Shown: positions 4,548 to 33,344, numbered from the stretch's first letter. The stretch: 64,000 nucleotides of DNA from a virus (IMGVR_UViG_3300033146_004399:1-64000); one strand, 5' to 3'. The notes: generated by a model not told the origin, from the sequence alone. Numbers and translations are program-made.

Positions 4548-4582
4548 ATCGATATTATCTTAAGTATTTATTAAATTAAGTT

Positions 4583-5545: not shown

Positions 5546-5652
5546 AGCATATCTCCTATATATCTTATAAGAAATATGCTTTTGATGTCGCTTTTAATTG
5601 AAATTGGAGAAAAGAAATAAACATTTAACTCCAAGACCAATTAAATACTACG

Positions 5653-6426: not shown

Positions 6427-6450
6427 ATATAATCTCCTTAATTCTTATCT

Positions 6451-11972: not shown

Positions 11973-12018
11973 TTTATTTCCTTTACAATTTTTTATTATC
12001 TTTATTTATATATAACAT

Positions 12019-12378: not shown

Positions 12379-12462
12379 TATTTCATTCTTCCAAGATCAT
12401 AATAAAGAAAATATTCTACTTTTTTGAAATTATCATATATACATATTTTATTTTCCATGTAA

Positions 12463-12472
12463 TTATCTTTAC
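12463..12472 (-). promoter_or_regulatory. Candidate late promoter GTAAAGATAA upstream of the gp25-like gene
   Basis: Same motif recurs upstream of many structural genes (see findings). Confidence 0.5.
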
Positions 12473-12490
12473 ATCGAAATGGTTTTTATA

Positions 12491-16448: not shown

Positions 16449-17292
16449 TTTCGTCTCCTTCTGTTACTGCTAACTCGCAACTTTTACATATAAAATCTTC
16501 TGAAGATTTTATTTTACCATTAATTTTACTCATAATGGTTTTATATAATTTTGAATTATATATATCTTCCAACGTTTGATGTTTAATATTCCCTAAAACT
16601 ATAGATTTTGTATAATCCATGCAACAAAGAATTAACGAACCATCTGCTAACAAATTAAACCATTCGTATGGTATACCTTTTGTACAACCTTTAATTTTAT
16701 TATGAATAACTTTATCGATATGTTTTAATATTCCTCCACGAGTATAATTATAATTTTTTGATATAAAATATCGTTTTAAAAATTCTGCAGGTGTTTCATT
16801 TCTTTCATAATAACGATTTTTTATAACATTAAAATTTTTGTTATTTATTGAATAGTCATAAAGACTATTATATGCTTCAACCATTTTATTCCAATCAAAT
16901 TCGGTTATATTTGTATTATGAACAATGTTATACGTATCAGCGTTATATCCATCCAACGATACCATAATTTGATTTATTTTACTATTTTTAATATTATCAA
17001 TATTTTTATGTAATAATAGTCCATTAGTTACAAACCCGATATTAGAATTGGGTATAATATTTTTAATATATTCAACTCTATTAAATAAATATGGGTCTAA
17101 AAGTGGTTCATTTTCTAAATGTAAAAATATGTTTATATTATTAGCAGCGACTTCTTTCAATTCTTCAATAAATTTATTAAATACATATGATCTTATTGTA
17201 TCGTTATTATGATACACTAATCTATGTGGACATGAAATGCATTTTGCATTACAACTATCTATTGTTTGTATTTGAACATTGTTAATTTTCAT
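16411..17292 (-). CDS. Radical SAM protein with SPASM/twitch domain
   Basis: CNAKCISC; NEPLLDP; C...YEWFNLLADGSLILCCMDY...LGNI...ICKSC. Confidence 0.9.
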   Translation of the reverse strand: MKINNVQIQTIDSCNAKCISCPHRLVYHNNDTIRSYVFNKFIEELKEVAANNINIFLHLENEPLLDPYLFNRVEYIKNIIPNSNIGFVTNGLLLHKNIDNIKNSKINQIMVSLDGYNADTYNIVHNTNITEFDWNKMVEAYNSLYDYSINNKNFNVIKNRYYERNETPAEFLKRYFISKNYNYTRGGILKHIDKVIHNKIKGCTKGIPYEWFNLLADGSLILCCMDYTKSIVLGNIKHQTLEDIYNSKLYKTIMSKINGKIKSSEDFICKSCELAVTEGDENEIDSRTMCSRK

Positions 17293-18238
17293 TTTTTATT
17301 AAAAATTCCTCTCTATTAACCATTTTAGTATAATATTCAATTTGAGTATTTATAGTACTATATATATTTACATTATTCCATGATCCTATTCCAAGGGTAG
17401 AAATATTCGGTTTATTTTTTGTTATTTTTGTATTAAATGTATATTTAATAATATCATCATGGTTTAGTTCGTTTAGCGTTAATTGTATACCATTTTTTTT
17501 ATTCATCCAATCTAAAATATTAATAACATTATCTTGTTTTTTATAGTTACTTTCTTTAATAAATTTATTTATAACATTAACAAAATTTTCATTTATATTA
17601 CTATTACCTTTCCATTTATAATCATAAGCTGCAACTATTTCATCTACGTTAAATTTAGAAATTATATCTAAATCATTATAAAATAATTTTGAGCTAGAAC
17701 CTTCTAATACTAATAAATCAACAACAACAAACATCTTCCTAGAGTGTGCATATTCAATTAATTTTTTGAGCCTTTTTATATCTATTGAAATTCTATTATG
17801 AGCATCTAATATATTTTTATTAAATGTTTGCACTCCAATAATAATAGTATTTATATTATAATATTTAAATATATCAATTTGTTCAAAAGTTAATAACGAA
17901 GGATGTACCTCTATAGTTTTATGATTATCAATTTTATCAAAACTTAATAAAGAAAAAATATTATTCATATCACTAATTTTCATAATATTTGGTGTACCAC
18001 CACCAATCCAATAATATTGATTTTTAAACAAGCTAATTATAGAAAAATATTTTTTTATTAATTCAGGTAAATATTTTTTATAGTAAAAATCATAATCTTG
18101 TTTATTATATTTATATCCGCCATATGCACAAAAACTACATACTTTTTCACAAAATGGATTATGTAAATATACTTGAAAAATATCTTTATTTGTAATATTA
18201 TTATTCCAAATATTTTTAAGTTTATCATAATCAATCAT
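17282..18238 (-). CDS. HemN-like radical SAM protein
   Basis: YLHNPFCEKVCSFC; IGGGTP; TIEVHP; IGVQTFN. Confidence 0.8.
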   Translation of the reverse strand: MIDYDKLKNIWNNNITNKDIFQVYLHNPFCEKVCSFCAYGGYKYNKQDYDFYYKKYLPELIKKYFSIISLFKNQYYWIGGGTPNIMKISDMNNIFSLLSFDKIDNHKTIEVHPSLLTFEQIDIFKYYNINTIIIGVQTFNKNILDAHNRISIDIKRLKKLIEYAHSRKMFVVVDLLVLEGSSSKLFYNDLDIISKFNVDEIVAAYDYKWKGNSNINENFVNVINKFIKESNYKKQDNVINILDWMNKKNGIQLTLNELNHDDIIKYTFNTKITKNKPNISTLGIGSWNNVNIYSTINTQIEYYTKMVNREEFLIKNEN

Positions 18239-19079
18239 ATATTTTTACCCATTCATTAAAAAAGCTTTTACCTAAAAAATGACCATCCACGTCACAATGT
18301 TTACACGCGTCTATATCATGTCTTTTATTATTTATCATTTTTAATCTAATATCATCATTTTTCCATATATTAAAAATAGTAGTGTTTTTAATGTTTCCGA
18401 GTATATTTAATTTTGCAAAATTATGAGAACAAAACGTTACATCACCATTTAAGTCTAACATTAAAAAGTAAAATGGATAATAACAAGAAGTGTTATTGTT
18501 TGTATTGCTATTTAATAATCCACCTCTATTTGTTTTTTTAAATTCGCCATATCTTTTTCTAAAGAGTATATTATCAAAATTTACATTTTTATTCATATGA
18601 TTAAATTTTTTAATTTGCCAATCACCATCATATAAACTAATTAATAATACTTTTAAATTTACTTTTTTAAACTTTAACAACATATCATCGTTTAAAAGAT
18701 CACCATTTGTTACTATAACAGATTTTGCTTCAGGAATTTCGTGAGATATTATCTCTAAAAACTCTATAATATTTTTATGAAGTAAAGGCTCACACCAGCC
18801 TGAAAATACTAATTCTCCAGAATAATTAATTTGTTTTAAATTTTTAATAAAAATTTTAAAAATTTTCATAGTCATATAGTTTTTAACATATTTAAATTGT
18901 TCATAAAACCCATCTAATGAAACTGGGCAAAAAGAACAGGAACGAGTACAACCTGCAATAACATTTATTTCAATTTGGTTGGGTAATAATACACCATTAT
19001 AATATTGTTTTTTTATTTTTAAAATATTATTTTTATTTATAGGCCAATTACTAATTTTAGATTCCATTTTTTTATCCAT
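18231..19079 (-). CDS. Radical SAM protein with SPASM/twitch domain
   Basis: CTRSCSFC; FSGWCEPLLH; CYYPF...LNGDVTFC...ACKHC. Start moved to ATG 19079 to avoid overlap with the divergent gene. Confidence 0.85.
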   Translation of the reverse strand: MDKKMESKISNWPINKNNILKIKKQYYNGVLLPNQIEINVIAGCTRSCSFCPVSLDGFYEQFKYVKNYMTMKIFKIFIKNLKQINYSGELVFSGWCEPLLHKNIIEFLEIISHEIPEAKSVIVTNGDLLNDDMLLKFKKVNLKVLLISLYDGDWQIKKFNHMNKNVNFDNILFRKRYGEFKKTNRGGLLNSNTNNNTSCYYPFYFLMLDLNGDVTFCSHNFAKLNILGNIKNTTIFNIWKNDDIRLKMINNKRHDIDACKHCDVDGHFLGKSFFNEWVKIYD

Positions 19080-19127
19080 TATTTTTATATTATATAAATA
19101 ATTATGCTTTAAGGCATAATTATTTAT

Positions 19128-20123
19128 ATGAATAATTATATATGTTTCCAAGAATTTGGCCATGACGCTAATATAGCATTATATTTTAATAATCAATTAC
19201 TTCATTTAGAGGCTGAAAGATTTTCAAAAATTAAAAATGATGATAATATATCTAATATCAAATTGAATATGGATTTAACAAATTTTAAGCAGATATATAT
19301 TACCCATCGAACAAATGTAAGTTATTATGGCTTAAATAATATTAATTTTAATTTTCATGATAATATCATTAAAACTCGAAATAGATATCATCTTGAACAT
19401 CACACAGCTCATGCTGCATATGCCTATTATACTAAACCTCGAAATATGAATAAATGTGATATTCTTGTTCATGATGGATGGGGACTAATTACGGATCGTG
19501 TTTTTTTTGATGAAAATTTAAATAGAATTGATGATACTATTTCTGGAATTGGATTGTTATATAGTAGTATTGCTAAATTAATATTTGATAACACTCATCA
19601 TGCTGGAAAAGTAATGGGTTTATCTGCATATGGAAAATTTGATAATGAAATAACAAATTTATATCATACTCATTTGAATCAATATATAAATTTAAATCAA
19701 CATAAAAATAATATAAATTTACTTTTTGAAGAAAAAGCCCGAATAGGAGGTAGAAGAAGTATTATTGCTAATTTTTACGATAACAATAATAAACCAGATG
19801 CAGATTATGCATATGCTGTTCAAAAAATGTTTGAACAGTCCACTTTAAATTATTTAAAAAAATTTAAAACATCAAATAATTTATGTATAGCTGGTGGTTT
19901 AGGATTAAATGGCTATCTAAATAAAAAAATAATAGATGAAGGAATATATGAAAAAGTATACGTACCACCGGCATGTGGTGACTCTGGCCTTGCATTGGGC
20001 GGTGTATTATGGTTACTTAATAAATTAGAATCTAAAAATATAAACGATGATTTTATTGCGTATTTAGGAAATAATTATAATGTTAATGATAAAATAATTG
20101 AGGATATAATAAATGAATTATAA
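19128..20123 (+). CDS. Carbamoyltransferase, N-terminal (Kae1-like) domain (CmcH/NodU family)
   Basis: GHDAN; EAERFSKIK; EHHTAHA; DGWG; AGKVMGLSAYG; AGGLGLNG; PPACGDSGLALG. Confidence 0.9.
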   Translation: MNNYICFQEFGHDANIALYFNNQLLHLEAERFSKIKNDDNISNIKLNMDLTNFKQIYITHRTNVSYYGLNNINFNFHDNIIKTRNRYHLEHHTAHAAYAYYTKPRNMNKCDILVHDGWGLITDRVFFDENLNRIDDTISGIGLLYSSIAKLIFDNTHHAGKVMGLSAYGKFDNEITNLYHTHLNQYINLNQHKNNINLLFEEKARIGGRRSIIANFYDNNNKPDADYAYAVQKMFEQSTLNYLKKFKTSNNLCIAGGLGLNGYLNKKIIDEGIYEKVYVPPACGDSGLALGGVLWLLNKLESKNINDDFIAYLGNNYNVNDKIIEDIINEL

Positions 20124-20670
20124 AAAATATTCATATTCAGATATATATGACATTATATCTGATAAAATTATTGATGGTAAAATTATAGGGTGGTATCAAG
20201 GCAGAAGTGAATCTGGACCTAGAGCTTTGGGTAATCGTAGTATATTATGCGATCCGAGAGATCCAAAAATGAAAGATTATTTAAATGAAAGAATAAAACA
20301 TAGAGAAAACTTTAGGCCATTTGCGCCAACAATTATGAAAGATTATATTACAGAATGGTTTGAAGATATAGAAGAAGCTCCATATATGTTGAAAATTGCT
20401 AAATATATTAAAGGTATGGGTGAGAAAGTCCCGTCTGTTTGTCATATAGATTATACCGGAAGATTACAATCTATTACAGAAAATGATAATGTTTACTTTT
20501 ATAATTTAATAAAAACTTTTTACAATAAAACTGGTTGTCCAATATTATTAAATACATCATTTAATGATAACGGACAACCTATAATAGAAACGCCTGCAGA
20601 TGCTATACATACTTTTAATAATATCGATTTAGATTATTTAGTCTTGAAAAATTATATATTAACTAAATAA
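20113..20670 (+). CDS. Carbamoyltransferase, C-terminal (YrdC-like) domain
   Basis: GWYQGRSESGPRALGNRSIL; IKHRENFRPFAP; HIDYTGRLQ; LLNTSFN..GQPIIET. Confidence 0.9.
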   Translation: MNYKKYSYSDIYDIISDKIIDGKIIGWYQGRSESGPRALGNRSILCDPRDPKMKDYLNERIKHRENFRPFAPTIMKDYITEWFEDIEEAPYMLKIAKYIKGMGEKVPSVCHIDYTGRLQSITENDNVYFYNLIKTFYNKTGCPILLNTSFNDNGQPIIETPADAIHTFNNIDLDYLVLKNYILTK

Positions 20671-20671: not shown

Positions 20672-21655
20672 TTAATTACGGCCTAAATTAATATTATCTA
20701 AATTATAAAATCCTAAACATGGGCCATTACACAAACCTTTATAAAATCTACATTCTAAACAAGGAGCTGGTGGTGTTATTATAGATTCTATTATTTTATA
20801 TCTAATAATAAGATCATTGGCTACTATATCGAGACTATCATATTTAGTAGAATCAACAGCTATAGTATCTTTTAATGGATAACAATAACTTACAGTATTA
20901 TCAGGAAAAATATCAGCTGGTACGCCATCCACACCGCACTTTAAACTAAGTCTATTTACAAATTTTTTAATATATTTATATTCTTCTTTGTTTTCGAACA
21001 TACATGGAAATAAAATGCAATCAATTGAAGGAGCAATTCCATTATGAACTGCTCCGCTCACAAGAGCTAAAACTATTTTACCTAATTCTTTATTATTTAT
21101 AAAGTAAAAATCTTCTTTATCCTCTTTATTTCCTGGAAAATTTATACTTATTCGCAGCCTTTCTAGAGCAGGCACATTATTTATTAAAAAATTTAAATAA
21201 TTTATATAATATTTTTTATCATTATTATATATAGTTAATCCAACAGATATATTTTCTTCCTGATCATTTGGATATGCTGCCTTATATAAAGCAGTGTAAT
21301 TTTTACTCCATAATTTTATTCTATTAAATTTATCTAAATCTGTAGCATTAACTAAATATTGAATATTAATTTTTTTACCAGCATCAATTAATAATTCTAA
21401 AATATCGTTGTTAAATAAAAAATTACTTATTAGTGTAAAAGGTCTATTTTTTTTAATTAAAAGTTCAACAAATTCTTTAAATAATGGATGCTGAGTCGGT
21501 TCACCCCCTAAAAGTTTAATTCTCGTATTTGTTTTATCAATTAAATTTTCAAATTGTTCTAAACTCATTGTACTATTAGGATTATTTTCTTTATTTTCAT
21601 GTGCAAAACAATATGGACAACCCTTGTTACAAGACGTGGTTAAAATAAAATTCAT
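20672..21655 (-). CDS. Radical SAM/SPASM protein
   Basis: CNKGCPYC; LLGGEPTQHP; C...ADIFPD..VSYCYP...CLECRF...CNGPC. Confidence 0.9.
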   Translation of the reverse strand: MNFILTTSCNKGCPYCFAHENKENNPNSTMSLEQFENLIDKTNTRIKLLGGEPTQHPLFKEFVELLIKKNRPFTLISNFLFNNDILELLIDAGKKINIQYLVNATDLDKFNRIKLWSKNYTALYKAAYPNDQEENISVGLTIYNNDKKYYINYLNFLINNVPALERLRISINFPGNKEDKEDFYFINNKELGKIVLALVSGAVHNGIAPSIDCILFPCMFENKEEYKYIKKFVNRLSLKCGVDGVPADIFPDNTVSYCYPLKDTIAVDSTKYDSLDIVANDLIIRYKIIESIITPPAPCLECRFYKGLCNGPCLGFYNLDNINLGRN

Positions 21656-21672
21656 ATTTTCTCCGTTATATA

Positions 21673-22290
21673 TTATATTTTCATTATAGATATTAATAAA
21701 GATTTCCGTAGACTCAAATTTACATTTTTATTTTGACCAAAAAACAATTTTTTACTAGATTTAAATAAAAATTCATTAGTATAGTCTAAATCAACAATAT
21801 CAAAATTATCATAATTAGTTTCAGCATTTTTTATATTATTATTAATTTTAAATATTTTAATAAAGTCTCCTATTAAAGGTATAACATGAAAGCCATAAAT
21901 CATATCTTCTATTTTATTTTTAATATGTGTTGTAATTAAATCTAAATGTTCATCTTTACTCTGTACTATTGAAAATACAAATTCGTATTTTGCATCGGTA
22001 GGAACATTAAAAAATGTTTTTAATACATTAACATATTTTTCATTATTTAAAAATAATGAAAATAAATTTTTATCCTCAACTTCAAGTCTATCAAGTTGAT
22101 TACTTGAAAATTTGAATTCTTTAAAAAACACAAGTGGTCCATTGATTCCGGATTTATATTTATTAATATTAATTGCATTAACTGCTGTTTTGATATCTTC
22201 ATTAATTAAATTTGTTGTTAAAAACTCTTTATCACTATTATTTAAAATATATTGTAATTTATCTGTTTCATCAACATTAAATATTTCCAT
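21673..22290 (-). CDS. Hypothetical protein within the rSAM operon
   Basis: 205-aa ORF, translationally coupled to the upstream rSAM; no motif recognised. Confidence 0.6.
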   Translation of the reverse strand: MEIFNVDETDKLQYILNNSDKEFLTTNLINEDIKTAVNAININKYKSGINGPLVFFKEFKFSSNQLDRLEVEDKNLFSLFLNNEKYVNVLKTFFNVPTDAKYEFVFSIVQSKDEHLDLITTHIKNKIEDMIYGFHVIPLIGDFIKIFKINNNIKNAETNYDNFDIVDLDYTNEFLFKSSKKLFFGQNKNVNLSLRKSLLISIMKI

Positions 22291-23618
22291 TATGTTCTCC
22301 TTTTAATCATTAAAGATTGATTAAAATTAATCCCCAAACTACTTTTAAAATTCGGATCAATCGAAATCTCAAATCCCCTATTTTTTAAATCATTAATAAA
22401 TTTACTTTTAGCCATATTAATAATATTAGTTTTAGCATTAAAATACCAAATACCATCATTATTTTTGTTGGTTTCATACATTCTTTCAAATAATTTTATT
22501 TCATTTTTTATTAGAAATGTATGTAAAGGTTTAAATATATTACAAACTAAATTATCTCTTATACCAAATTCACCATATTTACTATAATGAAAAGCTATAC
22601 AACCATGATCGCAAATATTGTCGGCTGGGCATAAATCACAACCCAAATCATGCACTAATTTATCTTTAATCTTTATTGTGCTGAAAAATCTTTTTATTTG
22701 TTTTAATTCTAAAAATTCATCATCTTTAACATTTTGAACAAATGTTTCTTCAAAATCTTGAGAATATCTACCGCAAAAATGTACATCTCCGTTGGGATTA
22801 ATTTCTATAATATGCATTCCGCCGCCGCATAATTTTAATCCACAATTACTTTTATGTTCTTCAATTATTAAATTACCACTAATTATTTTAGCGAAATGTC
22901 TTTTAACTATTGTTTCAATATTATCTTCAACAATAGTTTGATATTTACCGTTAATAAAATTATTTAGTATTGGTATCCATGCTTTATTTACAAAATCTTC
23001 TCCGGATACTTCACTATTGCCCACATTATTAACATCTTCTGCATAATTTACTTTAATACCTGAAATATTATATTTATTAAGAACATAATCTATACTTTCC
23101 TCAATATTTTTAATATTTGCTTGGTTTACCACTATTAAAAATCCATATTTAATATTAAACTCTTCTAACATTAAAAAATATTTTTCAAATTTATCGGTAT
23201 TTATTTCTGTTCTAGCAGAATTAGATTCTCTAATCCCATCAAACGATACTCCAACACTAACATCAAAATCATGTAATATTGTTAATAATTCTTTATTTAT
23301 TAAAGTAAGATTTGTTTGTATACCAAAATTATAAACAATATTATTTGCTTTAAAAGCTCGTGAAGAATACGATAAAAATTTCATAAACTTTTGTACACCT
23401 AATAATAATGGTTCACCCCCATGAAAAATTAAAGTAAATGTGCCATTATATTTGTTTTTTTTTCTATCACTAATAATTCTTTGTATAATAATTTTAAAAG
23501 TATCAAACTCCATCATTTCACCTTTAAAATTATCTTTATTTTTTACATAACAGTAAGAACATCTTAAATTGCAATCACGAGTGACTTTGAGTATTAACAT
23601 GTTTGTATTTCCAAACAT
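22290..23618 (-). CDS. Radical SAM/SPASM peptide maturase (anaerobic-sulfatase-maturase-like; resembles cyclophane-forming XyeB/GrrM/FxsB type)
   Basis: LILKVTRDCNLRCSYCY; IFHGGEPLL; IQTN; VSFDG; C..C....EINPNGDVHFC...CDLC....CDHGC...C. Confidence 0.85.
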   Translation of the reverse strand: MFGNTNMLILKVTRDCNLRCSYCYVKNKDNFKGEMMEFDTFKIIIQRIISDRKKNKYNGTFTLIFHGGEPLLLGVQKFMKFLSYSSRAFKANNIVYNFGIQTNLTLINKELLTILHDFDVSVGVSFDGIRESNSARTEINTDKFEKYFLMLEEFNIKYGFLIVVNQANIKNIEESIDYVLNKYNISGIKVNYAEDVNNVGNSEVSGEDFVNKAWIPILNNFINGKYQTIVEDNIETIVKRHFAKIISGNLIIEEHKSNCGLKLCGGGMHIIEINPNGDVHFCGRYSQDFEETFVQNVKDDEFLELKQIKRFFSTIKIKDKLVHDLGCDLCPADNICDHGCIAFHYSKYGEFGIRDNLVCNIFKPLHTFLIKNEIKLFERMYETNKNNDGIWYFNAKTNIINMAKSKFINDLKNRGFEISIDPNFKSSLGINFNQSLMIKRRT

Positions 23619-23824
23619 TATTTTTTCCTCTTAAGCATTTCTGCGTTTAATCCTTCGGTGAAAGCATCAAAACATTCACTACATAAAATTTCTGTAGTTG
23701 TTATATCCATATTCGGAATATGTTCCCAGGTATCGTCTGTTCTTATTCTTTGAGAATTGATATTAAAATTAACTTCAACCTTAATATTATTAAATTGTTT
23801 ACCGCAAAATGTACATTTTTCCAT
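23618..23824 (-). CDS. Small zinc-ribbon-like protein (CxxC...CxxC)
   Basis: 68 aa, CTFC and CSEC; sits between the repeat protein and an rSAM, with RBS GGAG. Confidence 0.6.
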   Translation of the reverse strand: MEKCTFCGKQFNNIKVEVNFNINSQRIRTDDTWEHIPNMDITTTEILCSECFDAFTEGLNAEMLKRKK

Positions 23825-23844
23825 TTTTTCTCCTATAAAATATA

Positions 23845-24768
23845 TTATATTGTATTTGCATAATTAGCATGATTAGTATAAGCCGCAGCTGTATAACTTA
23901 TTGTATTTGAATAAGAAGGATCAACATACCCAGCAAGTTCATCAGTTTTTATTTTTAAATTCTCCCAATCTGATTTAGTTATTATATCTCCAGGAGCTTT
24001 ATCAGCTAAGGCTGGGGTAGATGAGTCATCGTCACCTCTGATCTCAGCCCATAAACTATATAAACTATCTCTTAACGCAATATATTGATTATCTTCTACA
24101 AATTCAGGAGTAGCAGGATTTGCGTCGTTAAATTTTGCATCACCAACATTAGCAGAGGAAGCAGCAACATCAACAGAAGCATTCTGTTGACTTTTTATTG
24201 TACTTAAAATATTAATATTATCTCTAATATTTTTTATGGCTTCAATACCATCTGATATGAGGGTTGTATTTAAAACATTTTCAGTCCAAGGTTCACTCCA
24301 AGTTAATGTTTGGGCGTTACCACTATCTTGATTAGCATAATTGACATGATTTGTATAATCTTGAGAAGTATTACAGTTATCTGACGCATTATTATAATAT
24401 GTCGAGCATGCATTATTTGAATTTGAATAGGATGTCGAGCATGCATTATTTGAATTTGAATGGGATGTTGAACAATAATTATTTGTATTCGCGTGGTATG
24501 TTGAACAATAATTATTTGAATTCGCGTGGGACGTCGACCAACTATTATCATGAGATGTTGCACAGGCATTATTTGAATTTGAATAGGATGTCGAGCATGC
24601 ATTATTTGAATTTGAATGGGATGTTGAACAATAATTATTTGTATTCCCGTAGTATGTTGAACAATAATTATTTGAATTCGAATATGCGACGTTACACACG
24701 TTTGTGTAATCTGTATATACTATACCTGTTGTACAATTATTATAATCGAAATATTCATTATAAGCCAC
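23845..24768 (-). CDS. Putative radical SAM modification target: 11-aa Cys/[Y,H]-x-N repeat protein with a non-repetitive C-terminal domain
   Basis: Cys at residues 12, 25, 36, 47, 58, 69, 88, 99, 110, 121, 132; unit CSTx[YH]xN[ST]NN[YA]; YTN-HVN-YAN and terminal YTN-HAN-YAN; RBS GGAG; flanked by rSAM/SPASM genes. Confidence 0.8.
   Translation of the reverse strand: MAYNEYFDYNNCTTGIVYTDYTNVCNVAYSNSNNYCSTYYGNTNNYCSTSHSNSNNACSTSYSNSNNACATSHDNSWSTSHANSNNYCSTYHANTNNYCSTSHSNSNNACSTSYSNSNNACSTYYNNASDNCNTSQDYTNHVNYANQDSGNAQTLTWSEPWTENVLNTTLISDGIEAIKNIRDNINILSTIKSQQNASVDVAASSANVGDAKFNDANPATPEFVEDNQYIALRDSLYSLWAEIRGDDDSSTPALADKAPGDIITKSDWENLKIKTDELAGYVDPSYSNTISYTAAAYTNHANYANTI
24373..24696 (-). repeat. 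33-bp coding tandem repeats including an exact 81-bp duplication
   Basis: 24410-24490 is identical to 24566-24646 (offset 156 bp = 52 aa). Confidence 0.9.
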
Positions 24769-24778
24769 GTTAATTCTC

Positions 24779-25849
24779 CTAAGTTCTAAAAATTTTATTT
24801 AATATTAAATTTATCTTACATAAAACAGGAGAAATAATGTTATAATTTCCAGAATTTATTCGCATAGCTGCTAAGCATCCCCCCTTACACCAATCTACAG
24901 CAGGGCATGTTTCACAAATTTTATTAATTTTAAACTTATCGATATTAACTCTTTCTGTAAGTTTTGAATAATATTCATTATTATAATAACCGGTATATAT
25001 ATCACCGTAAAACTCGTTATAATTATCATCAAAATCTTTCATTTTAGGAACTAACTGGTGACAAAAGAATAATTTACCATTGGGGGCAATAGTTGTCACG
25101 GAATTTGGTTTATGACAAAAATTTTGTTGCATATAAAAATTATTATTTAATATACGATTTATTGCGTCAACATATGGCGGTAACTTCTTAATTTTAAACA
25201 ATGATGTTAATTGTTTTTCTATTGATGTATATGCTTCATCTGTATATTCAACATTAAAATTATATAATATATTAACATTTACTCCAAGACTAATTAAAAA
25301 TTCATAACTTTCTTCTAAATATTGATAATTATTATTACTAACCACCATAAGAACTGTCGGTATTATACCGATATATTTAAATTTAGAAATTAATTCTGGA
25401 AATATTTTCATTGTTTGATCCCAACTGCCAGTGTTATTTTGTGTTATTCTGTTGATATCGTGTGATTTTCGAGTACCATCTAAAGATATAATTGGATATA
25501 TTTTATGTTTTAACATAAATTCAATCATATCACTATTTAATAACAATAAATTTGAATTCATAGTATATTTAAATTTATTGTTTAAAGATTTTTCAACGAA
25601 TTTTTTTATAAATTCCCAGTTCATAGTAGGTTCACCACCAAAAAAACTTATCGACGGTGATTCAGAGCACGTTTCTTTAATAAATAAAAGTATATCATCG
25701 ATCATGTCTAACTGCATAGTATAATTATAGTTACATATTGTACGGTCTGAGAATGCGTCATCAAAGCAATATTTACATCTTAAATTACAATTTTCAGTTA
25801 ATATTAACTCATAATAATTTATAGATAAATTTTTCGGTTTATTAATCAT
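24779..25849 (-). CDS. Radical SAM/SPASM peptide maturase-like protein
   Basis: CNLRCKYC; FFGGEPTMN; ISLDG; FC...TIAPNGKLFFCHQ...CETC...WCKGGC...C. Confidence 0.9.
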   Translation of the reverse strand: MINKPKNLSINYYELILTENCNLRCKYCFDDAFSDRTICNYNYTMQLDMIDDILLFIKETCSESPSISFFGGEPTMNWEFIKKFVEKSLNNKFKYTMNSNLLLLNSDMIEFMLKHKIYPIISLDGTRKSHDINRITQNNTGSWDQTMKIFPELISKFKYIGIIPTVLMVVSNNNYQYLEESYEFLISLGVNVNILYNFNVEYTDEAYTSIEKQLTSLFKIKKLPPYVDAINRILNNNFYMQQNFCHKPNSVTTIAPNGKLFFCHQLVPKMKDFDDNYNEFYGDIYTGYYNNEYYSKLTERVNIDKFKINKICETCPAVDWCKGGCLAAMRINSGNYNIISPVLCKINLILNKIFRT

Positions 25850-25851
25850 TT

Positions 25852-26760
25852 TTATTCCTTTATTGGTATTAAGTCTAAATTATTTTTATATTTTTCATAG
25901 TATTCTTTCCATACTCCAATGCAACGTTTATTATAGATGCAATCTTCACATGTTTTTGGCTTTCTATATTCTTCACGAATAAGTTTATTGTAATCTTCAA
26001 TGGCAACATCATTAATAGCATGGTCATGGCCTCTATTACCATTAGATAATAATCTATCTCCATCAGAATAATATACTTGATTTACATATGGATGAATATA
26101 ACACAATGGTATCGCTTCAACATATAATAAATTACCATATTTTTCAAAACATTGATGTATTGATTTTTTTATAGTAATGTATTGAGGGACAACAACATCA
26201 ATGTTTGTAAATGCGTTACCATTAGGATGCGGAAATGTCATATTCATAGCATTTATTCCTAAAACATTATGTATAAAATCATATGTTTTTAATAAATTAT
26301 CCACGTTCATTTTAGATAAAACTGTTTGCGAATTTATGATAGAATTTGTTTTATATTTATTTAAATATTTAATACCTTGTATTGTTTCGGCCCAACTACC
26401 TTTTCTATCCGTAATAGCATCATGTATAAATTCATTATGAGAATGAATAGCTATTAAATAATAATCTATATATTTTACAGATTCTTTTGTGAATTCTTCA
26501 TCATTAAAACGTCTCCCATTAGTTTGTAATATTATTGGACTTTTAGTTTCTTCTTTTATATATTTTATTATTTCTATAAAATCTTTTCGTATAGTTGGTT
26601 CTCCGCCTGTTATTACAATTCTTTCACCTGGTTTTACTTCTTTATATATAATATCTTTTATTTGTTGCGTTGATAAATTTCCAGAATTAATTTTATCAGT
26701 TATTACGCAATGAACGCAATTATTATTACAAGAAAAACCAACTTTTAAATCAAACGACAT
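25852..26760 (-). CDS. Radical SAM protein, HxsC-like (His-Xaa-Ser system maturase type)
   Basis: CNNNCVHC; ITGGEPT; LQTNGRRF; HDAIT..KGSW.ETIQGI; EAIPLC; K...CEDC.....CIGVW..Y tail. Confidence 0.75.
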   Translation of the reverse strand: MSFDLKVGFSCNNNCVHCVITDKINSGNLSTQQIKDIIYKEVKPGERIVITGGEPTIRKDFIEIIKYIKEETKSPIILQTNGRRFNDEEFTKESVKYIDYYLIAIHSHNEFIHDAITDRKGSWAETIQGIKYLNKYKTNSIINSQTVLSKMNVDNLLKTYDFIHNVLGINAMNMTFPHPNGNAFTNIDVVVPQYITIKKSIHQCFEKYGNLLYVEAIPLCYIHPYVNQVYYSDGDRLLSNGNRGHDHAINDVAIEDYNKLIREEYRKPKTCEDCIYNKRCIGVWKEYYEKYKNNLDLIPIKE

Positions 26761-26770: not shown

Positions 26771-28762
26771 TTAATATGCTATTTTTATATCTTTATCATA
26801 TAAATTAGAAATAATAATTTCATCAAGTTTTTGTTTGCCTTGTTGATAAGTATTAAATATGTCAATTAATTTATATAGTCCACCAGATATATTATAATGT
26901 TCATTTGTTACAAAACTTTTTTGTTTTTGAAACATCGAATAATAATTAAAAATTATACTATTTTCAACAAATTGTACTATAGATATATTTTTATTTTTAT
27001 CTGATTGTAAATTCATATTATATGCTACAAAAAAATCTGTATTCATTTGAAGGTTAATATATTTTTTTAATTCTTTCATATATATATCAGTTAAGTTTTT
27101 TCTTTTATAAAATGGTAATGCGTTATATAGCCCTTGAACTTCACCCAACGTCTGAATGGTTTTCATAAAAACACCAGAAGTGGTGGTATGAAAATTATTA
27201 TTTATAAAATTTAATACATCATCTTCAAAATTTTGAATAATTATTTCTGTATCAAGTTTATTATTATCTAAATTATAACGGGCTTGAATAATATGCGTTG
27301 CGCTAATTAACGATATTAATCGTTGCAACGAATGCTGGTGAGCTATATCTTTAATTTTAAACATATTTTTAATTATTAAATTTGACTTTTTTAATATATA
27401 TTCAATATAATAATTATTGTGTTTCCACTTATATGTATTTACAATATTCCTAGTAAATACATATAAAAATTTAGTTAAACTTACAATTTTTAAATTTAAT
27501 TGCCAATTAATATCTTTTAATTCTGATTCGTCAAATGATTTCCCATTATTTATATAATTTATTGTTAACCTTATAAATGGAGATTTATTACTCATTTCGT
27601 CCATATGAAATCTATTTTTCATTGTAAAAAAATTATTATTAATATTGTATTTATTTAAAAATATTTCATAATCTTTGTCATTATTTAATTTATCTAATTT
27701 TAATGTAGATAAGTATTCATTAGTTAAAAATTTATAAGCTAAATCATCTTTATATTCTATATCTGGATATATATGTATAAAATGTTTTAATATAATTTGT
27801 TTAAAATAATTTACAAAATAAATATCAACGCTATTGCATTCTTTTATAAATTCATTTAATCCTTTTATCATTAACACATACATTTTATAGTTGTATGATA
27901 AATAAAATATTCGTATAAATATTTTATTATAATGTATAAAATTATCATCATGTAATATCATTTTATCTAGTAAATATTGCATCATGGCCATAATATATTC
28001 TATATTTTTATATTGAAATAAATATGTAAACTGTCTATCATCTTGCAATTTATTTGCCAAATCTATATAATTTATATCTTCTATATTTTCCATAATAGAA
28101 TAAGGTTCAATATCGAAAAATTTAAACACATAATCAATATGAGATTTGTAATTATATTTAAATTCTTTATTAAACCAATACATGATATTATCGCTATCAA
28201 CTTCATTTACATAATTAATGTTATTTTCTTTTAATAAATTTTTAAGATATTCTGCATAATATTGATTGTTTCCAGTTATTTTATATTCTTTATTTTCAAC
28301 TTTAAAATTTTGTAACTTAGTAAAAGTTAAAGTATCAACATTAATATGTATATTTTTTTTATTTGATGTAGTATTATCGGTATAAGGTAATAAGTCAAAT
28401 AAATCAATAATAAATTTATTTTTAATGTTAATTTCATCAAAATGAGTAATCTTATTTTTAAATATAATATTATCCATTTTAGTTTTAATAAACATTACAA
28501 CAGAATTTATTTTTGATTCAACAAATATATTATAATTAATAATAATGTCGGTAATTTCTATTTGGTCTGTTATATTAAAAATAGAATCATATAGCTCTTT
28601 ATTATAATTGTTTGTATTTAAAATAGATTTAACCCATTTAATATCAACGTTATAATAATATAAAATATCATTAAACAATTTAAAAATATTTATATTAAAA
28701 ATATTTTTATCAGTTTTACGAGTTGTTAAAATATTTTTATTATTTTTATTAAAACTATACAT
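26771..28762 (-). CDS. Large hypothetical protein, paralog of 28755-30587
   Basis: 663-aa ORF; C-terminal half aligns by eye with the neighbour (IEYI...QR.ISL...RYN.DN.K.D...Q.LYNA). Confidence 0.65.
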   Translation of the reverse strand: MYSFNKNNKNILTTRKTDKNIFNINIFKLFNDILYYYNVDIKWVKSILNTNNYNKELYDSIFNITDQIEITDIIINYNIFVESKINSVVMFIKTKMDNIIFKNKITHFDEINIKNKFIIDLFDLLPYTDNTTSNKKNIHINVDTLTFTKLQNFKVENKEYKITGNNQYYAEYLKNLLKENNINYVNEVDSDNIMYWFNKEFKYNYKSHIDYVFKFFDIEPYSIMENIEDINYIDLANKLQDDRQFTYLFQYKNIEYIMAMMQYLLDKMILHDDNFIHYNKIFIRIFYLSYNYKMYVLMIKGLNEFIKECNSVDIYFVNYFKQIILKHFIHIYPDIEYKDDLAYKFLTNEYLSTLKLDKLNNDKDYEIFLNKYNINNNFFTMKNRFHMDEMSNKSPFIRLTINYINNGKSFDESELKDINWQLNLKIVSLTKFLYVFTRNIVNTYKWKHNNYYIEYILKKSNLIIKNMFKIKDIAHQHSLQRLISLISATHIIQARYNLDNNKLDTEIIIQNFEDDVLNFINNNFHTTTSGVFMKTIQTLGEVQGLYNALPFYKRKNLTDIYMKELKKYINLQMNTDFFVAYNMNLQSDKNKNISIVQFVENSIIFNYYSMFQKQKSFVTNEHYNISGGLYKLIDIFNTYQQGKQKLDEIIISNLYDKDIKIAY

Positions 28763-30587
28763 ATATATAACTCATATTTAATACATTTTTTGTTAAATGA
28801 AAAGTATTAGGAATAATTTTATTATTAGACTTATCAATTCCCTCATGAATTATTTCTAATAAATATTCACCATCATATATATGATTTTGTATAAATCTAT
28901 ATGGTATAGTCATAGATGGAAACATTGTATACGAAGCTAATAAAAATATTTGTTCATATATATCATGACGATTATTAATCTCATATTTTTCATTAACATT
29001 TGATATATCATTTTGCTTAAATCCATACATTGAAGCTACAAAGTCATAATGATTAAGTGAAATAATATTTTTGAATTCATTTAATATATCATTAAAAATA
29101 TTTGATACATCTACTCTTTTTAAAATATGTTGAGCATTATATAATGATTGTATTTGAGAAATTATTTCTATTACTTTATATATTGCTAATGGCAAATAAT
29201 GATATTTATTATCAGTAATAAATTTGATTTCTTTTACATAATCTTCTAATAAAGAAATATTATCCCATTTTTTATTATCCATATTATATCTATATTTTAT
29301 AGAATTTTTAAAATATATTAAACTAATAAATCTTTGATAAAAAAATGTATTAAATTTATCATGGTTTAACATTACTTTATTAATTATTTTTTCTAATCTT
29401 AGTATAATATATTCTATATTTATATTATTTTTTTTCCAACCTTGAAAAGAATATTTTCTAGCATATGATATTGCTGCAACACCTAAGATTATCATTTTAA
29501 CGTTTTCATTTTCAAGATCAACATCAGGTATATTAAAATTTTCAGATATGCAATTAATATAATCATAAATATCATAGTTTGTTTGCATATCTGCATTTCC
29601 ATATTTTTCCGGTATTAAACTATACATATCCATTCCAAACACATATAATTCTTTCATCAATTCTTTCTTATTAAAATCCATATCATATTTTGGTAATTTC
29701 ATATAAATATTTATTATTTTATATGAAACATTATTATCATTTTTAATATATTCAATCATAGCAAGATAATATCGAATTATTAGTTTTTGATAATGATAAA
29801 TATATTTTTTATTTTTAACAAAATGTAACATTTTATTTGTTACCAATAATATTGAATATATTATTTTTTCATTTGTTATATAGTTCAATAAATGAAAAAA
29901 ATTTTTAATATATTTTTTTAATAATATTTCGTTATTTTCCGTATGTATTATTACTGCTAATTCACTTAAACTATCAATATAATTAGTTTTATTAATATAC
30001 ATAAAATTTTTTATAAAAAATTTATTATTAATATCAATATCAATATTTTTAATTAAATCATTGCATGTAATATGCTTAGTAACAATTTTTGGTTCTAATA
30101 CATCAAATAATTTATCTATTCTTTCTTTTTCATTATTACCGATAATATTAAGCTCAGACTGCTCAGACTGCTCAGACTGCTCAGACTGCTCAGACTGCTC
30201 AGACTGCTCAGACTGCTCAGACTGCTTAAGCTTTATATTATTATAATCATTAATTATTAATAATTCATAAAGTGTTTCTGAATCAGTATACACTTCCACA
30301 TTTTTATTTGTTAAAACAATAAAATCAAATATATATTTGTTGATTGTACTTATAAACAAATGCGTATCAATATCAAAACTTAAAGCTGATAATATTTTAA
30401 TATACAAATTTCCTTCAGCATTATACTGTTTTAAACTTTGATACCATTCTTTGTTATATTTATTTATAGTAAATCTTAAATATTCTTCTTTTGTAATATT
30501 TCCATATTGTTTAATTAAATCTATAATATATGCAGGATTAAATCCCTTAGCTTTTTTATTACATTTATCATAAAATACTTTATTCAT
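28755..30587 (-). CDS. Large hypothetical protein with (QSE)8 insert
   Basis: 610-aa ORF overlapping the start of the downstream paralog. Confidence 0.65.
   Translation of the reverse strand: MNKVFYDKCNKKAKGFNPAYIIDLIKQYGNITKEEYLRFTINKYNKEWYQSLKQYNAEGNLYIKILSALSFDIDTHLFISTINKYIFDFIVLTNKNVEVYTDSETLYELLIINDYNNIKLKQSEQSEQSEQSEQSEQSEQSEQSELNIIGNNEKERIDKLFDVLEPKIVTKHITCNDLIKNIDIDINNKFFIKNFMYINKTNYIDSLSELAVIIHTENNEILLKKYIKNFFHLLNYITNEKIIYSILLVTNKMLHFVKNKKYIYHYQKLIIRYYLAMIEYIKNDNNVSYKIINIYMKLPKYDMDFNKKELMKELYVFGMDMYSLIPEKYGNADMQTNYDIYDYINCISENFNIPDVDLENENVKMIILGVAAISYARKYSFQGWKKNNINIEYIILRLEKIINKVMLNHDKFNTFFYQRFISLIYFKNSIKYRYNMDNKKWDNISLLEDYVKEIKFITDNKYHYLPLAIYKVIEIISQIQSLYNAQHILKRVDVSNIFNDILNEFKNIISLNHYDFVASMYGFKQNDISNVNEKYEINNRHDIYEQIFLLASYTMFPSMTIPYRFIQNHIYDGEYLLEIIHEGIDKSNNKIIPNTFHLTKNVLNMSYIYV
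30152..30226 (-). repeat. 9-bp tandem repeat, 8 perfect copies (GCTCAGACT)
   Basis: Read directly; encodes QSE x8 in frame. Confidence 0.95.
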
Positions 30588-30638: not shown

Positions 30639-33344
30639 TTAAGCCATTAATATTAATACTTCTACTCTTTGTGGAGAAGAATCTGTTTTTTCTTCCATTA
30701 CTTTAGCAAATACTTTACCAAGTCCATCTTCAGTATTTTGCTTAACTGTACCAAATCCAACCTTTTCAGAAGTTATCAATAAGTCGCCGAAAAAACAAGG
30801 TTCTTCAACCCACACCCATACTCTACCAGATAATCCAACTGGTACCTTACCTTCACTTTTTTCATCACCACCTAAAGCATAACCATAAGAATCTGAATAA
30901 ACACCAACAACCGTTCCATCACCCCTTTTACTTGCAGGTTTGACACCATCAGCAGTTTGAACTAATACTTGTCCAACTTCACATTCTTCGGCAGCTGGAA
31001 AAAATTCTGCAAGGTCATTGTAAACTGCGTTATAAACTCTTGTTGCATAAAAATAACCATCATAGTTAAGTCTCGTCGAAGATGAAGGGGCTGTAGCTCC
31101 ACCATAAAGTTTACCAGCTGCTTTTGTGTTTCCGTTGTAAGCAAGAAAACCAACACTTGCAGTACCAGCAGCATAATCTGGTAGAGTAGCATTGCTATGT
31201 GTATGCGAATCATTATTAACCGCTGCGCTTATTGCTATATTAGCACTTCCATCGAAGGCAACTGCAGTTGCAGTTATATCACCAGTAATATCAATAGTTC
31301 TAGCAGTTGCTAATTTAGTAGCTGTAGAAGCATTACCCGTAAGAGTACCACTTATGCCTGCAGAAGCTGTAACAGCTTTAGAAAGTGTAATGAGTGAAGG
31401 TGTAAGAGTCATCACATTTGCAAGTGCAGCTGTTTCACCAACTGCTTGAGAAGTAGGTGTTATCTTAAAACTCCAGATACCGTTAGTTTGGTCCCAAATT
31501 TCATGAAATCCATATCCAGTTTCTGTCATCTCGTGTTGCGAATTGATAAATCTGTTACCAATTCTAAAATTAAAGTTACCACCGCCGTCGTTTGATGTTA
31601 TTTGATGCTTTCCAGCTTCAAACAATATACCTCCACCTAAGCCACCACTTACTTCCAAACCAGTTACTTCAAGATCAGTACCGTTAAATTTTATAGCTGC
31701 TGTTGTTTTAAAACTTTGAGAAGTTCCATCCCAATAAGGTACTCCATTTGTTATAGGCGTGTCTTCTCTTGTTGCTACTGCTTGAAGGGAACCTACCATA
31801 CCAACTTCAAAGGTATCGCTTGCTTCATCGAAAAGGAATTGATAATTTGTTTCTGTACCTCTTTCAATTTCCAACCCAGCATTTTGTGAAGGAGTACCAG
31901 CTTCATTACTATTAAGAATGATTATATTATCAGCCATAGCAATAGTTTCAGTATTAATAGTGGTAGTGGTGCCGGAAACAGTTAAATCACCTTGAACTAT
32001 AAGAGAGCCAGACATAGTATCACCATTTATATTAATAAATCTAGCATCACTTTCAGTCTCTGTATAATATCTAGTATCATGAGTATGTGAATCATTGTTA
32101 ACTGATGCGGTGATTGTTATATTAGTACTCCCATCAAAAATTACCGCATCTGATGTTATATCACCACTAATATTAATAGTTCTACCTGTTTCAAGTATTG
32201 TCGCTGTTGAAGCATTACCATTTATTGTATTTATATAAGCTGAAGAAAATATTTGTGTAGCAGAACCTATGTTTCTTACAGAAATATTGCCAATTGCACC
32301 AGTCATTTCTGGGAGTATATCACCATCAATAAATATACCAGTATCCGAAGTTAACGTTATTGTTTCTCCGGTAGGAGTTTCCATATTAATAGCTGCAGGC
32401 GAAACTGCGCCTGATAAAACAACTTCATTGTATGTAGAGCCGTCATAACTAACATTGAACGTGTCGTTGGTACCAGATATAGCGACTCCACCTAAATAAA
32501 TAGTGTTAGCGGCAAAATGACCTTCATCAGCATAAACATTACCAAAAGGTTTTGTTGCAGAACCCAAATCAACAGCATTAGTATTAGGGATAATATTATG
32601 TACAACAGCATTCAAAGACGTAGCTGTTATTGCTGTGTTAAAATCTAATTGATTTGAATCTATACCATCATGATCGTGACCTGATTGACCAAAGAATTTT
32701 TCATCAACATATATTTTAGTTGCATAATTTACTAAGTCTGAAGCTGAATTTATAACAGCTGTTAATTTTTGATCTGGTCCTTCAATATTATATGTAAATT
32801 GAATTTTATCAGTTTGTGGATCCCCATCTGAATAAATAAGATAATCATTCCCTGAACCTTGCTCTTGTAAAACACCATTTAAAAAAACCATAAGGTTTGA
32901 CCCATCTGCCGCAGCAGTATCTGAACCTAAATCAAAAATACTACCTGTTCCTTGGGGATCATTATCATCAACACCAGTCCAATTTGTAGCTTCATAAGAC
33001 ATTTTTAATACTAATTCTCTATCTTCATCACCTGAAGCAACACCAGTACCTGCTATTAATTGGTGATAAGGTTCTGTTGATAAACCAATCCACAATTCAT
33101 TCGTATTAATATCATAATACATTTGACCTGCCTGAGAGCCATCCCAAATTGGAAGTTCTGCAGTTGTAACCATCTTGATAAGACCTTCGGTTATCCAACC
33201 AGTAGCATCATTTTGCCATGCTTCTATTTTAGATTGTTTAATTTCTGCGTCATTTGCTATATGTGCGTTAGTAAGTCTGTGATCTATCCCATTAACTATA
33301 TCATTACCAATACCAAATATTTGTTCTGCTCGTAATCTCGGCAT
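30639..33344 (-). CDS. Tail-fibre-like protein with a C-terminal peptidase G2/IMC-like chaperone domain
   Basis: GNASTAT.L.T.RTI.I.GDIT...FDGS..I.I.A.VNNDSHTH repeated twice; HTHDTRYYTETE; NAGLEIERG; C-terminal NDLAEFF...VGVYSD...VPVGLSGRVWV...GDLLITS. Confidence 0.75.
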   Translation of the reverse strand: MPRLRAEQIFGIGNDIVNGIDHRLTNAHIANDAEIKQSKIEAWQNDATGWITEGLIKMVTTAELPIWDGSQAGQMYYDINTNELWIGLSTEPYHQLIAGTGVASGDEDRELVLKMSYEATNWTGVDDNDPQGTGSIFDLGSDTAAADGSNLMVFLNGVLQEQGSGNDYLIYSDGDPQTDKIQFTYNIEGPDQKLTAVINSASDLVNYATKIYVDEKFFGQSGHDHDGIDSNQLDFNTAITATSLNAVVHNIIPNTNAVDLGSATKPFGNVYADEGHFAANTIYLGGVAISGTNDTFNVSYDGSTYNEVVLSGAVSPAAINMETPTGETITLTSDTGIFIDGDILPEMTGAIGNISVRNIGSATQIFSSAYINTINGNASTATILETGRTINISGDITSDAVIFDGSTNITITASVNNDSHTHDTRYYTETESDARFININGDTMSGSLIVQGDLTVSGTTTTINTETIAMADNIIILNSNEAGTPSQNAGLEIERGTETNYQFLFDEASDTFEVGMVGSLQAVATREDTPITNGVPYWDGTSQSFKTTAAIKFNGTDLEVTGLEVSGGLGGGILFEAGKHQITSNDGGGNFNFRIGNRFINSQHEMTETGYGFHEIWDQTNGIWSFKITPTSQAVGETAALANVMTLTPSLITLSKAVTASAGISGTLTGNASTATKLATARTIDITGDITATAVAFDGSANIAISAAVNNDSHTHSNATLPDYAAGTASVGFLAYNGNTKAAGKLYGGATAPSSSTRLNYDGYFYATRVYNAVYNDLAEFFPAAEECEVGQVLVQTADGVKPASKRGDGTVVGVYSDSYGYALGGDEKSEGKVPVGLSGRVWVWVEEPCFFGDLLITSEKVGFGTVKQNTEDGLGKVFAKVMEEKTDSSPQRVEVLILMA

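Follow-up and report, generated by a model that had tools for sequence, protein, structure and literature searches.

A phage cassette of four radical SAM enzymes around a Tyr/His-x-Asn repeat protein, a putative relative of the bacterial HXS system

Introduction

To our knowledge, crosslinking by radical S-adenosylmethionine (rSAM) enzymes is known almost only from short secreted peptides, and protein-sized substrates (HxsA and CrpA) are just emerging. Here we describe a gene cassette of a large uncultured tailed phage, found in a 64-kb stretch of viral DNA (the window), which constitutes the first 64 kb of the 179,366-base IMG/VR record IMGVR_UViG_3300033146_004399 (~25% G+C). The cassette (positions 20672-26760) encodes a 307-amino-acid (aa) repeat protein flanked by four rSAM enzymes and, on the best reading of the sequences, appears to represent the HXS system of bacteria in a related, phage-borne form, with a fibre-module protein as the substrate to be matured. 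The locus had been singled out in an earlier analysis of the DNA alone (the sequence-only reading), which proposed that the enzymes crosslink Tyr/His-x-Asn and NxxC motifs of the repeats.

In the HXS system (HxsA/B/C/D; TIGR03976-03979) the proteins HxsB, HxsC and HxsD mature the HxS-repeat protein HxsA, and the matured HxsA blocks, in the periplasm, the entry of phage DNA; HXS is an antiphage system (Li et al., Nat Commun 2026; PMC13128918). An HxsC-HxsD pair was seen by pull-down (PMC13128918). Triceptide motifs containing Tyr and His were reported by Sugiyama et al. (2022, as cited in PMC11851443), and NxxcB, as presented in PMC11851443, joins the beta-carbon of Asn to the sulfur of Cys as a thioether in NxxC. 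Ranthionine links are introduced by the enzyme CrpC into CrpA, a protein of full size (PMC13692751). With respect to phages, a survey from 2017 mentioned a T4-like genome of marine origin that has 12 rSAM genes (PMC5332604). The sequence-only reading knew of no described phage system of the kind analysed here, and in the literature we likewise found neither a phage version of Hxs nor an rSAM-modified virion protein.

Results

Repeat protein and its conserved motifs

The presumed substrate of the cassette is the 307-aa repeat protein (23845..24768), encoded, as are all genes of the cassette, on the minus strand. Its GTG start codon lies 7 nt after an AGGAG ribosome-binding site, and the N-terminus aligns with the Met start of its homologues. 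The protein contains (i) a repeat region (aa 12-146; 24331..24735) built of C-S-T-x-[YH]-x-N-[ST]-N-N-[YA] units followed by YTN-HVN-YAN, (ii) a conserved central helical domain (aa 147-285; 23914..24330), and (iii) a C-terminal tail (aa 286-307; 23848..23913) with tandem [YH]-x-N triplets (YSN ... YTN-HAN-YAN). The 11 Cys residues (12, 25, 36, 47, 58, 69, 88, 99, 110, 121 and 132) are separated by 13, 11, 11, 11, 11, 19, 11, 11, 11 and 11 residues. There are 20 [YH]xN triplets (shuffle mean 5.7, sd 2.0) and eight NxxC motifs, namely four NNYC and four NNAC (shuffle mean 1.9), and neither count was reached in any of 5000 shuffles. The open reading frame (ORF), the Cys spacing, the eight NxxC motifs and the tandem runs YTN-HVN-YAN (138-146) and YTN-HAN-YAN (297-305) had all been described correctly in the sequence-only reading, whose count of about 19 triplets is corrected to 20. 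A search for further triplet-rich proteins in the 179-kb record yielded two with three tandem triplets, which is the chance level, and a search of the same record for (CHxS)n tails was negative.

The DNA of the repeat array is itself periodic (33-nt period, 8.5 copies, 72% matches, within a ~123-nt super-repeat at 81%), and the regularity inside the window protein is therefore partly inherited by duplication. Given this duplication, independent support for the motifs is their conservation across homologues. The repeat protein matched no Pfam, NCBIfam or PHROG family; a word-indexed search recovered two close relatives only, and pattern-based searches of IMG/VR recovered nothing. A profile search of 1.84 billion representatives identified at least 68 family members, 47 of them with E <1e-10, all encoded on uncultured phage or metagenome contigs.

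Common to all members are an N-terminal M-[AP]-Y-x-E-Y-F-N motif, from 0 to >20 units of 10 or 11 residues followed by a Y-x-N-H-x-N-Y run, a helical domain of ~130 residues, and a [YH]-x-N triplet tail. When the window protein is excluded, the Cys-anchored units follow the consensus C1-x-[TVQ]-S-[YH]5-x-[ND]7-[Y..]8-x-[ND]10-(x), in which position 5 is aromatic in ~85-95% of the units and positions 7 and 10 are Asn or Asp in ~68-87%. Conservation across the whole family peaks at Y286 and N288, which form a Y-x-N triplet: in the 61-member alignment Tyr occurs in 56 sequences and His in four more, and Asn in 60 of 61. Residues 297-305 of the same alignment follow [HY]x[ND][HY]xN[YH]. The aromatic-x-Asn triplet singled out by the sequence-only reading is thus the most conserved feature of the family (~98% at Y286 and N288), and its second motif did not hold. 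Since unit periods of both 10 and 11 residues occur among the homologues, the conserved Asn or Asp precedes the next Cys by 1 or 2 residues instead of 3, and the NxxC register typical of NxxcB substrates is not conserved among the homologous proteins.

The central domain is kept in all 61 aligned members, and R182 and L239 are conserved in at least 90% of them. In an AlphaFold2 model obtained with the family alignment, residues 145-295 (predicted local distance difference test score, pLDDT, >90) form three long helices (171-191, 226-244 and 265-280) and a small beta element, and residues 16-140 have pLDDT <50. Fold searches with this model (Foldseek against PDB and BFVD, VIA-align wide, ESM Atlas) returned generic helical bundles only, the best BFVD match being a phage protein automatically named "SCIFF" (E 0.07). 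Neither a profile search against PDB sequences nor a feature search of the Atlas provided a lead. Among the Atlas results was a viral cluster carrying Pfam's rSAM-target CXXX-repeat family.

A subfamily of the repeat proteins is Cys-free and, in place of the units, has arrays of His-x-[N/S/G] with a period of 3 to either side of the domain. Four of these relatives (P0050, P0052, P0053 and P0060) end in a Peptidase_S74 tail-fibre chaperone, which points to the occurrence of the shared domain in fibre proteins; a fibre role of the window copy itself is putative. Cys-free relatives reach 48.8 bits with the HxsA4 model (cut-off 55); further matches, to HxsA and HxsA3, have scores of 31.8 bits (cut-off 121.65) and 23.8 bits (cut-off 65). 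The window protein itself does not match any of the HxsA models tried (TIGR03979, NF038309 and NF038313). One locus (L023:471-1235) encodes a 255-aa protein with long His-x-Ser/Asp arrays on both sides of a central domain, adjoining anSME-like, HxsC-like, zinc-ribbon and 327-type genes; this protein is a bridge between the repeat family and HxsA-type arrays.

Radical SAM enzymes of the cassette

All four flanking genes recognized in the sequence-only reading encode rSAM proteins, and none of these reaches a curated NCBIfam cut-off. As the signature of an rSAM/SPASM protein we took a CX3CX2C motif combined with a seven-Cys SPASM motif (CX9-15GX4C ... CX2CX5CX3C ... C), and both are present in the 356-aa and 442-aa enzymes.

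The 356-aa protein (24779..25849, minus strand) carries the full SPASM motif, with CX12GX4C and CX2CX5CX3C readable. PapB (NF047865) is its best model, at 136 bits with a cut-off of 340; the models of the SCIFF maturase and CcpM come next, and among solved structures CteB (5wgg) matches best. These models and this structure are all of Cys-thioether formers, and the PapB/SCIFF-maturase-like enzyme is a candidate Cys-directed thioether former.

The 442-aa protein (22290..23618, minus strand) also has a full SPASM motif, and its rSAM and SPASM cysteines are invariant in 12 orthologues. The NCBIfam models ranked DynA first (125.5 bits, cut-off 450), before the anaerobic sulfatase-maturating enzyme, anSME (116.9, cut-off 349.45), PapB (108), YhhB (98.6), DarE (98.3) and AmcB (95.8); the best solved structure is anSME (4k36). 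With DynA as the top model of this anSME/DynA-like enzyme and the cyclophane formers YhhB and AmcB close behind, homology points in the same direction as the roles proposed below. Formylglycine formation of the anSME type (TIGR03942) was considered and rejected, the substrate lacking the C/S-x-P/A-x-R target motif (neither CxPxR nor CxAxR is present).

The 302-aa protein (25852..26760, minus strand; PF04055, 83.8 bits) is HxsC-like and, of the SPASM motif, has CX2CX5C only. It scores highest with HxsC4 (113.5 bits, cut-off 500) and next with HxsC (105.1, cut-off 267.9). Finally, the 327-aa protein (20672..21655, minus strand) is an orphan rSAM enzyme with a SPASM-like C-terminal Cys cluster of variant form (CX2CX6CX3C); PF04055 matches its N-terminal half only (45.5 bits), and no NCBIfam model exceeds 37 bits.

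The HxsB model (TIGR03978, cut-off 370) gave 89.3 bits with the 356-aa enzyme and 64.2 bits with the 442-aa enzyme. The triceptide maturase models XyeB, GrrM/OscB, FxsB, YhhB and AmcB gave 56.4, 67.6, 73.7, 98.6 and 95.8 bits, respectively (cut-offs 450, 310, 370, 445 and 425). Assignment of the enzymes to the triceptide, NxxcB-type, ranthipeptide or Hxs families, as anticipated in the sequence-only reading, is thus not borne out by hidden Markov model scores, which all lie below the curated cut-offs.

Conservation of the cassette and co-variation of enzymes and motifs

Gene neighbourhoods of family members were compared on contigs of 1.7-292 kb, with neighbours classified by BLAST against the window proteins. 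The same cassette was found in the window and at 14 other loci (L005, L006/7/8, L009, L010, L011/12/13, L014, L015, L016, L017, L018, L019, L023, L030 and L031/32), with orthologous enzymes sharing 30-55% identity; L011/12/13 belong to the same record as L022, and L024, whose genes are identical, is a short record of its own. Where the flanking sequence suffices, the core of the cassette consists of the family member(s), a zinc-ribbon gene and the gene of the anSME-like enzyme, which is therefore the universal enzyme of the cassette. An rSAM of the 327-aa type is present in nine loci, and its orthologues (33-55% identity) end the cassette in L005, L006, L009, L011, L015, L018, L019 and L031. 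Every homologue on a contig long enough to be judged sits in the same rSAM cassette, from which we infer, as the sequence-only reading did, that the neighbouring enzymes are likely to have the repeat protein as their substrate. The opposite pattern, homologues commonly lacking adjacent rSAM genes, was looked for and not seen on these contigs.

The enzyme content of the cassette follows the motif content of the substrate. A PapB-like orthologue (32-55% identity) adjoins the substrate in all eight loci with Cys units (window, L005, L006, L009, L010, L011, L019 and L031) and is found in none of the four Cys-free loci with at least 8 kb of flank (L015, L016, L018 and L023). The HxsC-like enzyme is an accessory cassette member, whose orthologues (42-49% identity) stand beside family members in L005, L010, L014, L015, L016, L019, L023 and L030. 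HxsC-like genes occur as single, doubled or fused copies next to substrates with 4-22 His triplets; beside the two Tyr-only substrates (0-1 His triplets) there is none.

These comparisons bear on the possibility that the repeat protein is a multi-core precursor of peptides that are made on the ribosome and modified after translation (RiPPs), the 11-residue units being crosslinked and then excised as small cyclic peptides (toxin, signal or antibiotic) that are released at lysis. Tandem, near-identical units next to SPASM peptide maturases would suit such a precursor, as would the predicted disorder of the repeats. However, no protease, exporter or signal peptide is encoded in any family locus, there is no leader (the repeats begin at residue 12), and the repeats are followed by a folded, highly conserved domain and a conserved triplet tail. 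The domain is constant among members that have anything from 0 to >20 units, and fusions to Peptidase_S74 exist. We regard a multi-core precursor as highly improbable.

Contig G001 (positions 1-18201; L002 and L020) carries a second enzyme module right after a putative major capsid gene. This module (L020) encodes, besides an HxsC-HxsC fusion, an anSME-like enzyme, a zinc ribbon that is extended by a Cys-rich segment, and a paralogue of HxsC.

Zinc-ribbon partner of the anSME-like enzyme

Between the genes of the repeat protein and of the anSME-like enzyme lies a gene (23618..23824, minus strand) for a 68-aa zinc-ribbon protein (CTxC ... CxxCF), whose four Cys are invariant in 11 orthologues. 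In the window this gene has a strong ribosome-binding site and overlaps the anSME-like gene by 1 nt, and in every locus the ribbon gene touches an anSME-like gene; a separate ribbon gene is lacking for three anSME-like genes of L005 and L019. A complex of the ribbon with the anSME-like enzyme was predicted with an ipSAE of 0.81, compared with 0.35 for the best control, and passed the controls. The applied ipSAE mark is reached by 58 of 80 solved complexes and by 2 of 110 mismatched pairs, a calibration that is rough here because our own alignments were used. The runs agreed in at least 88% of contacts, with a partner pLDDT of at least 88. The model thus supports binding of the ribbon to the anSME-like enzyme. 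The predicted contacts fall on SPASM-region residues 253-329 of the 442-aa protein, a position compatible with the ribbon being either a rubredoxin-like electron donor or a protein that presents the substrate.

On a 201-kb IMG/VR phage contig (L019:2689-3816) an HxsC-like rSAM (residues 5-306) is fused to a zinc-ribbon domain (309-372), which lends Rosetta-stone support to the idea that the ribbon may also serve HxsC-type enzymes. The 68-aa protein matched no NCBIfam model at E 0.01, and it does not fit HxsD (TIGR03976; LYW and LLNDYxLRE motifs); the arrangement recalls the HxsC-HxsD pair, but the ribbon is analogous only and has no sequence similarity to HxsD. Neither the ribbon partner nor the pairing of enzymes with motifs had been noticed in the sequence-only reading, which also missed the link to tail-fibre proteins and to HXS.

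Tail-gene setting of the cassette

The phage origin claimed for the locus is confirmed by the IMG/VR record, which contains baseplate and tail-fibre genes. The cassette belongs to a packed run of minus-strand genes with tail-fibre-like genes (30639-33344 and 33480-40382) on one side. It is preceded, with no gaps, by genes for two paralogous unknown proteins of 663 and 610 aa (26771..30587, minus strand), then by the first tail-fibre-like gene and a 2300-aa gene. Homologues of the 663- and 610-aa proteins, which found no family match in library scans, recur directly upstream of, or within, the cassette in L005, L006, L019 and L031. The 610-aa protein (28755-30587, minus strand) contains a perfect (SEQ)x8 run. 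Within the cassette, a 205-aa ORF of unknown function (21673..22290, minus strand) stands between two rSAM genes; it matched no Pfam, NCBIfam or PHROG family, has no counterpart in the related loci and is thus lineage-specific. No oxygenase was seen in the cassette.

This setting is relevant to whether the repeat protein is instead an Hxs-type effector outside the virion, acting in the infected cell or its envelope, for example in excluding superinfecting phages by hindering DNA entry, as HxsA does in bacteria, or in countering an HXS-type defence of the host. The cassette combines an enzyme of the HxsC-like type with a SPASM enzyme and a small partner protein, which reproduces the four-part logic of HxsA-D (PMC13128918), the Cys-free relatives score just under the HxsA4 cut-off and also match HxsA and HxsA3, and a true His-x-Ser array occurs in L023. 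On the other hand, HxsA needs export and positive charge, and the repeat protein has no signal peptide, no peptidoglycan-binding domain and no basic residues in its repeats. Relatives with the tail-fibre S74 chaperone, and the embedding of the locus in a tail-gene run in several phages, also speak against this reading. We consider a non-virion effector unlikely.

Downstream of the cassette there is a 3-deoxy-D-manno-octulosonate (Kdo)-type sugar island (12491-20670), followed by a Tail_P2_I baseplate gene. The island includes transaldolase-like, CMP-Kdo-synthetase-like (CTP_transf_3), aminotransferase and KdsA-like (DAHP_synth_1) genes, with four small rSAM or rSAM/SPASM genes interleaved (13094-14002, 16411-17292, 17282-18238 and 18231-19163). 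It may serve glycosylation of the same repeat protein, or alter surface sugars of the host. Parts of it (KdsA, KdsB, an rSAM/SPASM orthologue) also follow the cassette in L006/7, L015, L016 and L019. A carbamoyltransferase of the NodU/CmcH type is encoded by overlapping N- and C-terminal ORFs (19128-20123 and 20113-20670, plus strand), which converge on the end of the rSAM operon. The 179-kb record contains nine PF04055 rSAM genes, all within positions 2379-26739; the ninth (1662-2924, minus strand; 420 aa) lies far from the cassette.

The proximity of the sugar genes raises another possibility, namely that the rSAM enzymes serve another task, such as the Kdo-type sugar pathway, and that the repeat protein is a trimeric fibre segment of the ordinary kind, with Cys, His, Tyr and Asn side chains that bind metal ions or pack along the threefold axis. 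Periodic His- or Cys-rich motifs in fibres can be structural, as the His-x-His metal sites in the tip of the T4 long tail fibre illustrate, and the island with its four small rSAM/SPASM genes both adjoins the locus and is conserved beside the cassette. Nevertheless, in every locus the gene lies between enzymes resembling peptide maturases, not beside sugar genes, and the best matches of these enzymes are peptide or protein maturases, not sugar-modifying rSAMs. Moreover, the PapB-like enzyme comes and goes with the Cys units, and L018 and L009 have the cassette without Kdo genes nearby. An unmodified metal-binding or packed fibre is, in our judgement, quite improbable.

Other features of the window include five DUF7487 paralogues, some with zinc-ribbon motifs, scattered among structural genes (40468-42060, 47141-48229, 50128-51231, 52214-53392 and 59305-61041); these probably constitute a mobile family of endonuclease-like genes. 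For the T4 late-promoter word TATAAATA there were 45 matches, with 33 expected in this AT-rich DNA, which is uninformative.

Discussion

The repeat protein is very probably modified chemically by the enzymes of its cassette, in a way that has not been described. The more detailed reading, which we hold to be fairly probable, is that of an rSAM-matured fibre-module protein with a division of labour among the enzymes, deduced from the fact that particular enzymes travel with particular motifs. The general claim of modification is likelier than this detailed scheme, and the specific bond types are less likely.

According to the scheme, a multi-enzyme phage rSAM system would mature a full-length protein, not a leader-core peptide. 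The substrate would be a fibre-module protein in which a helical domain is flanked by aromatic-x-Asn arrays and preceded by eight to ten Cys-containing 11-residue units. The complex of the anSME/DynA-like enzyme with the zinc ribbon would act on the universal Tyr/His-x-Asn triplets, for which the likeliest chemistry would be cyclophane-type links that join the i+2 beta-carbon to an aromatic carbon or an aromatic nitrogen. The PapB-like SPASM enzyme would join the Cys of each unit to a nearby Asn or Asp as a thioether, and the HxsC-like enzyme would modify the triplets that contain His, just as HxS motifs are the target of HxsC. The outcome would be a rigid, covalently stapled stretch within a protein that is produced late, together with the tail genes.

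Several observations weigh against this scheme. Because no enzyme reaches a curated cut-off, its chemistry is not readable from homology, and in HXS, the only characterised relative, HxsA carries a +8 Da change of unknown nature on SHRSS, not a simple -2 Da crosslink (PMC13128918). The co-variation comprises about a dozen interrelated loci, which were compared without phylogenetic correction and are not independent events. The correspondence between HxsC-like genes and His triplets has exceptions, since substrates with four His triplets occur both without HxsC (L018) and with it (L010), and no member of the family lies within 8 kb of two enzyme modules (L020 in G001, and L021). The disordered model of the repeats fits a substrate and, equally, a trimeric fibre that the modelling did not capture. 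The window protein has no Peptidase_S74 domain of its own and its central fold found no specific match, so that we can only infer its place in the virion. Finally, tblastn searches with the repeat protein and two enzymes against 50,697 GenBank phages returned no orthologue, only matches of at most 28% identity; the cassette thus appears in none of the cultured phages searched.

A bolder version of the scheme, which we find doubtful, is that large phages staple a tail-fibre-module protein with an enzyme-per-motif kit, that the product is the first rSAM-crosslinked virion protein, and that the system is a sister of the bacterial HXS defence. If this were true, both sides of the conflict would use the same chemistry on triplet-repeat proteins. 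Likewise, a phage that devotes at least four Fe-S enzymes to one tail-module protein would, if the reading is correct, represent a new kind of virion or late-protein maturation. The enzyme-motif pairs that nature provides in the cassette family allow substrate rules to be read. If the scheme holds, small enzymes, presumed to be leader-independent, that act on repeats of variable number would be attractive for stapling designed proteins.

By analogy, triceptide chemistry fits the aromatic-x-Asn triplets, and thioether chemistry of the PapB/CteB type fits the Cys units. Triceptide substrates carry tandem aromatic-X-X3 triplets processed by an rSAM/SPASM maturase, a description that also applies to the phage protein with its 20 [YH]xN triplets. 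They are short leader-core peptides, whereas the phage substrate is a 200-400-aa protein with a folded domain and neither RiPP recognition element nor leader; the phage enzyme scores 56-99 bits against cut-offs of 310-450. PapB/CteB and the CrpC/CrpA pair resemble the phage system in that they supply the best model and structure of the 356-aa enzyme and in the regular Cys of the substrate with Asn or Asp nearby, and CrpC is a precedent for a SPASM enzyme that staples a full-size Cys-rich protein. The spacing from Cys to Asn/Asp is unlike the CX3D/E of PapA, and the phage enzyme is one of four in its cassette. With NxxcB the system shares the eight NxxC motifs of the window protein, and Asn-Cys chemistry thereby has a precedent, but the register is not kept in the phage homologues, and no assignment to an NxxcB-type family was obtained.

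The closest resemblance is to HXS, a newly recognised bacterial antiphage defence, and the phage cassettes may offer a handle on the still unknown chemistry of that family. In both systems a full-length protein with arrays of aromatic/His-x-small-polar triplets is accompanied by an HxsC-type rSAM, a SPASM rSAM and a small rSAM-binding partner (in the case of the ribbon, binding is predicted); HxsC4 and HxsC are the best models for the 302-aa enzyme, and the Cys-free substrates nearly reach HxsA4. The phage cassette differs in lying inside a tail-gene run and in having four rSAM enzymes rather than two. Its triplets are Tyr/His-x-Asn, compared with His-x-Ser in HxsA, and Cys-containing 10-11-mers are added to them. 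In contrast to HxsA, the phage substrate lacks a signal peptide, a peptidoglycan-binding domain and a basic character, and the zinc ribbon is unlike HxsD.

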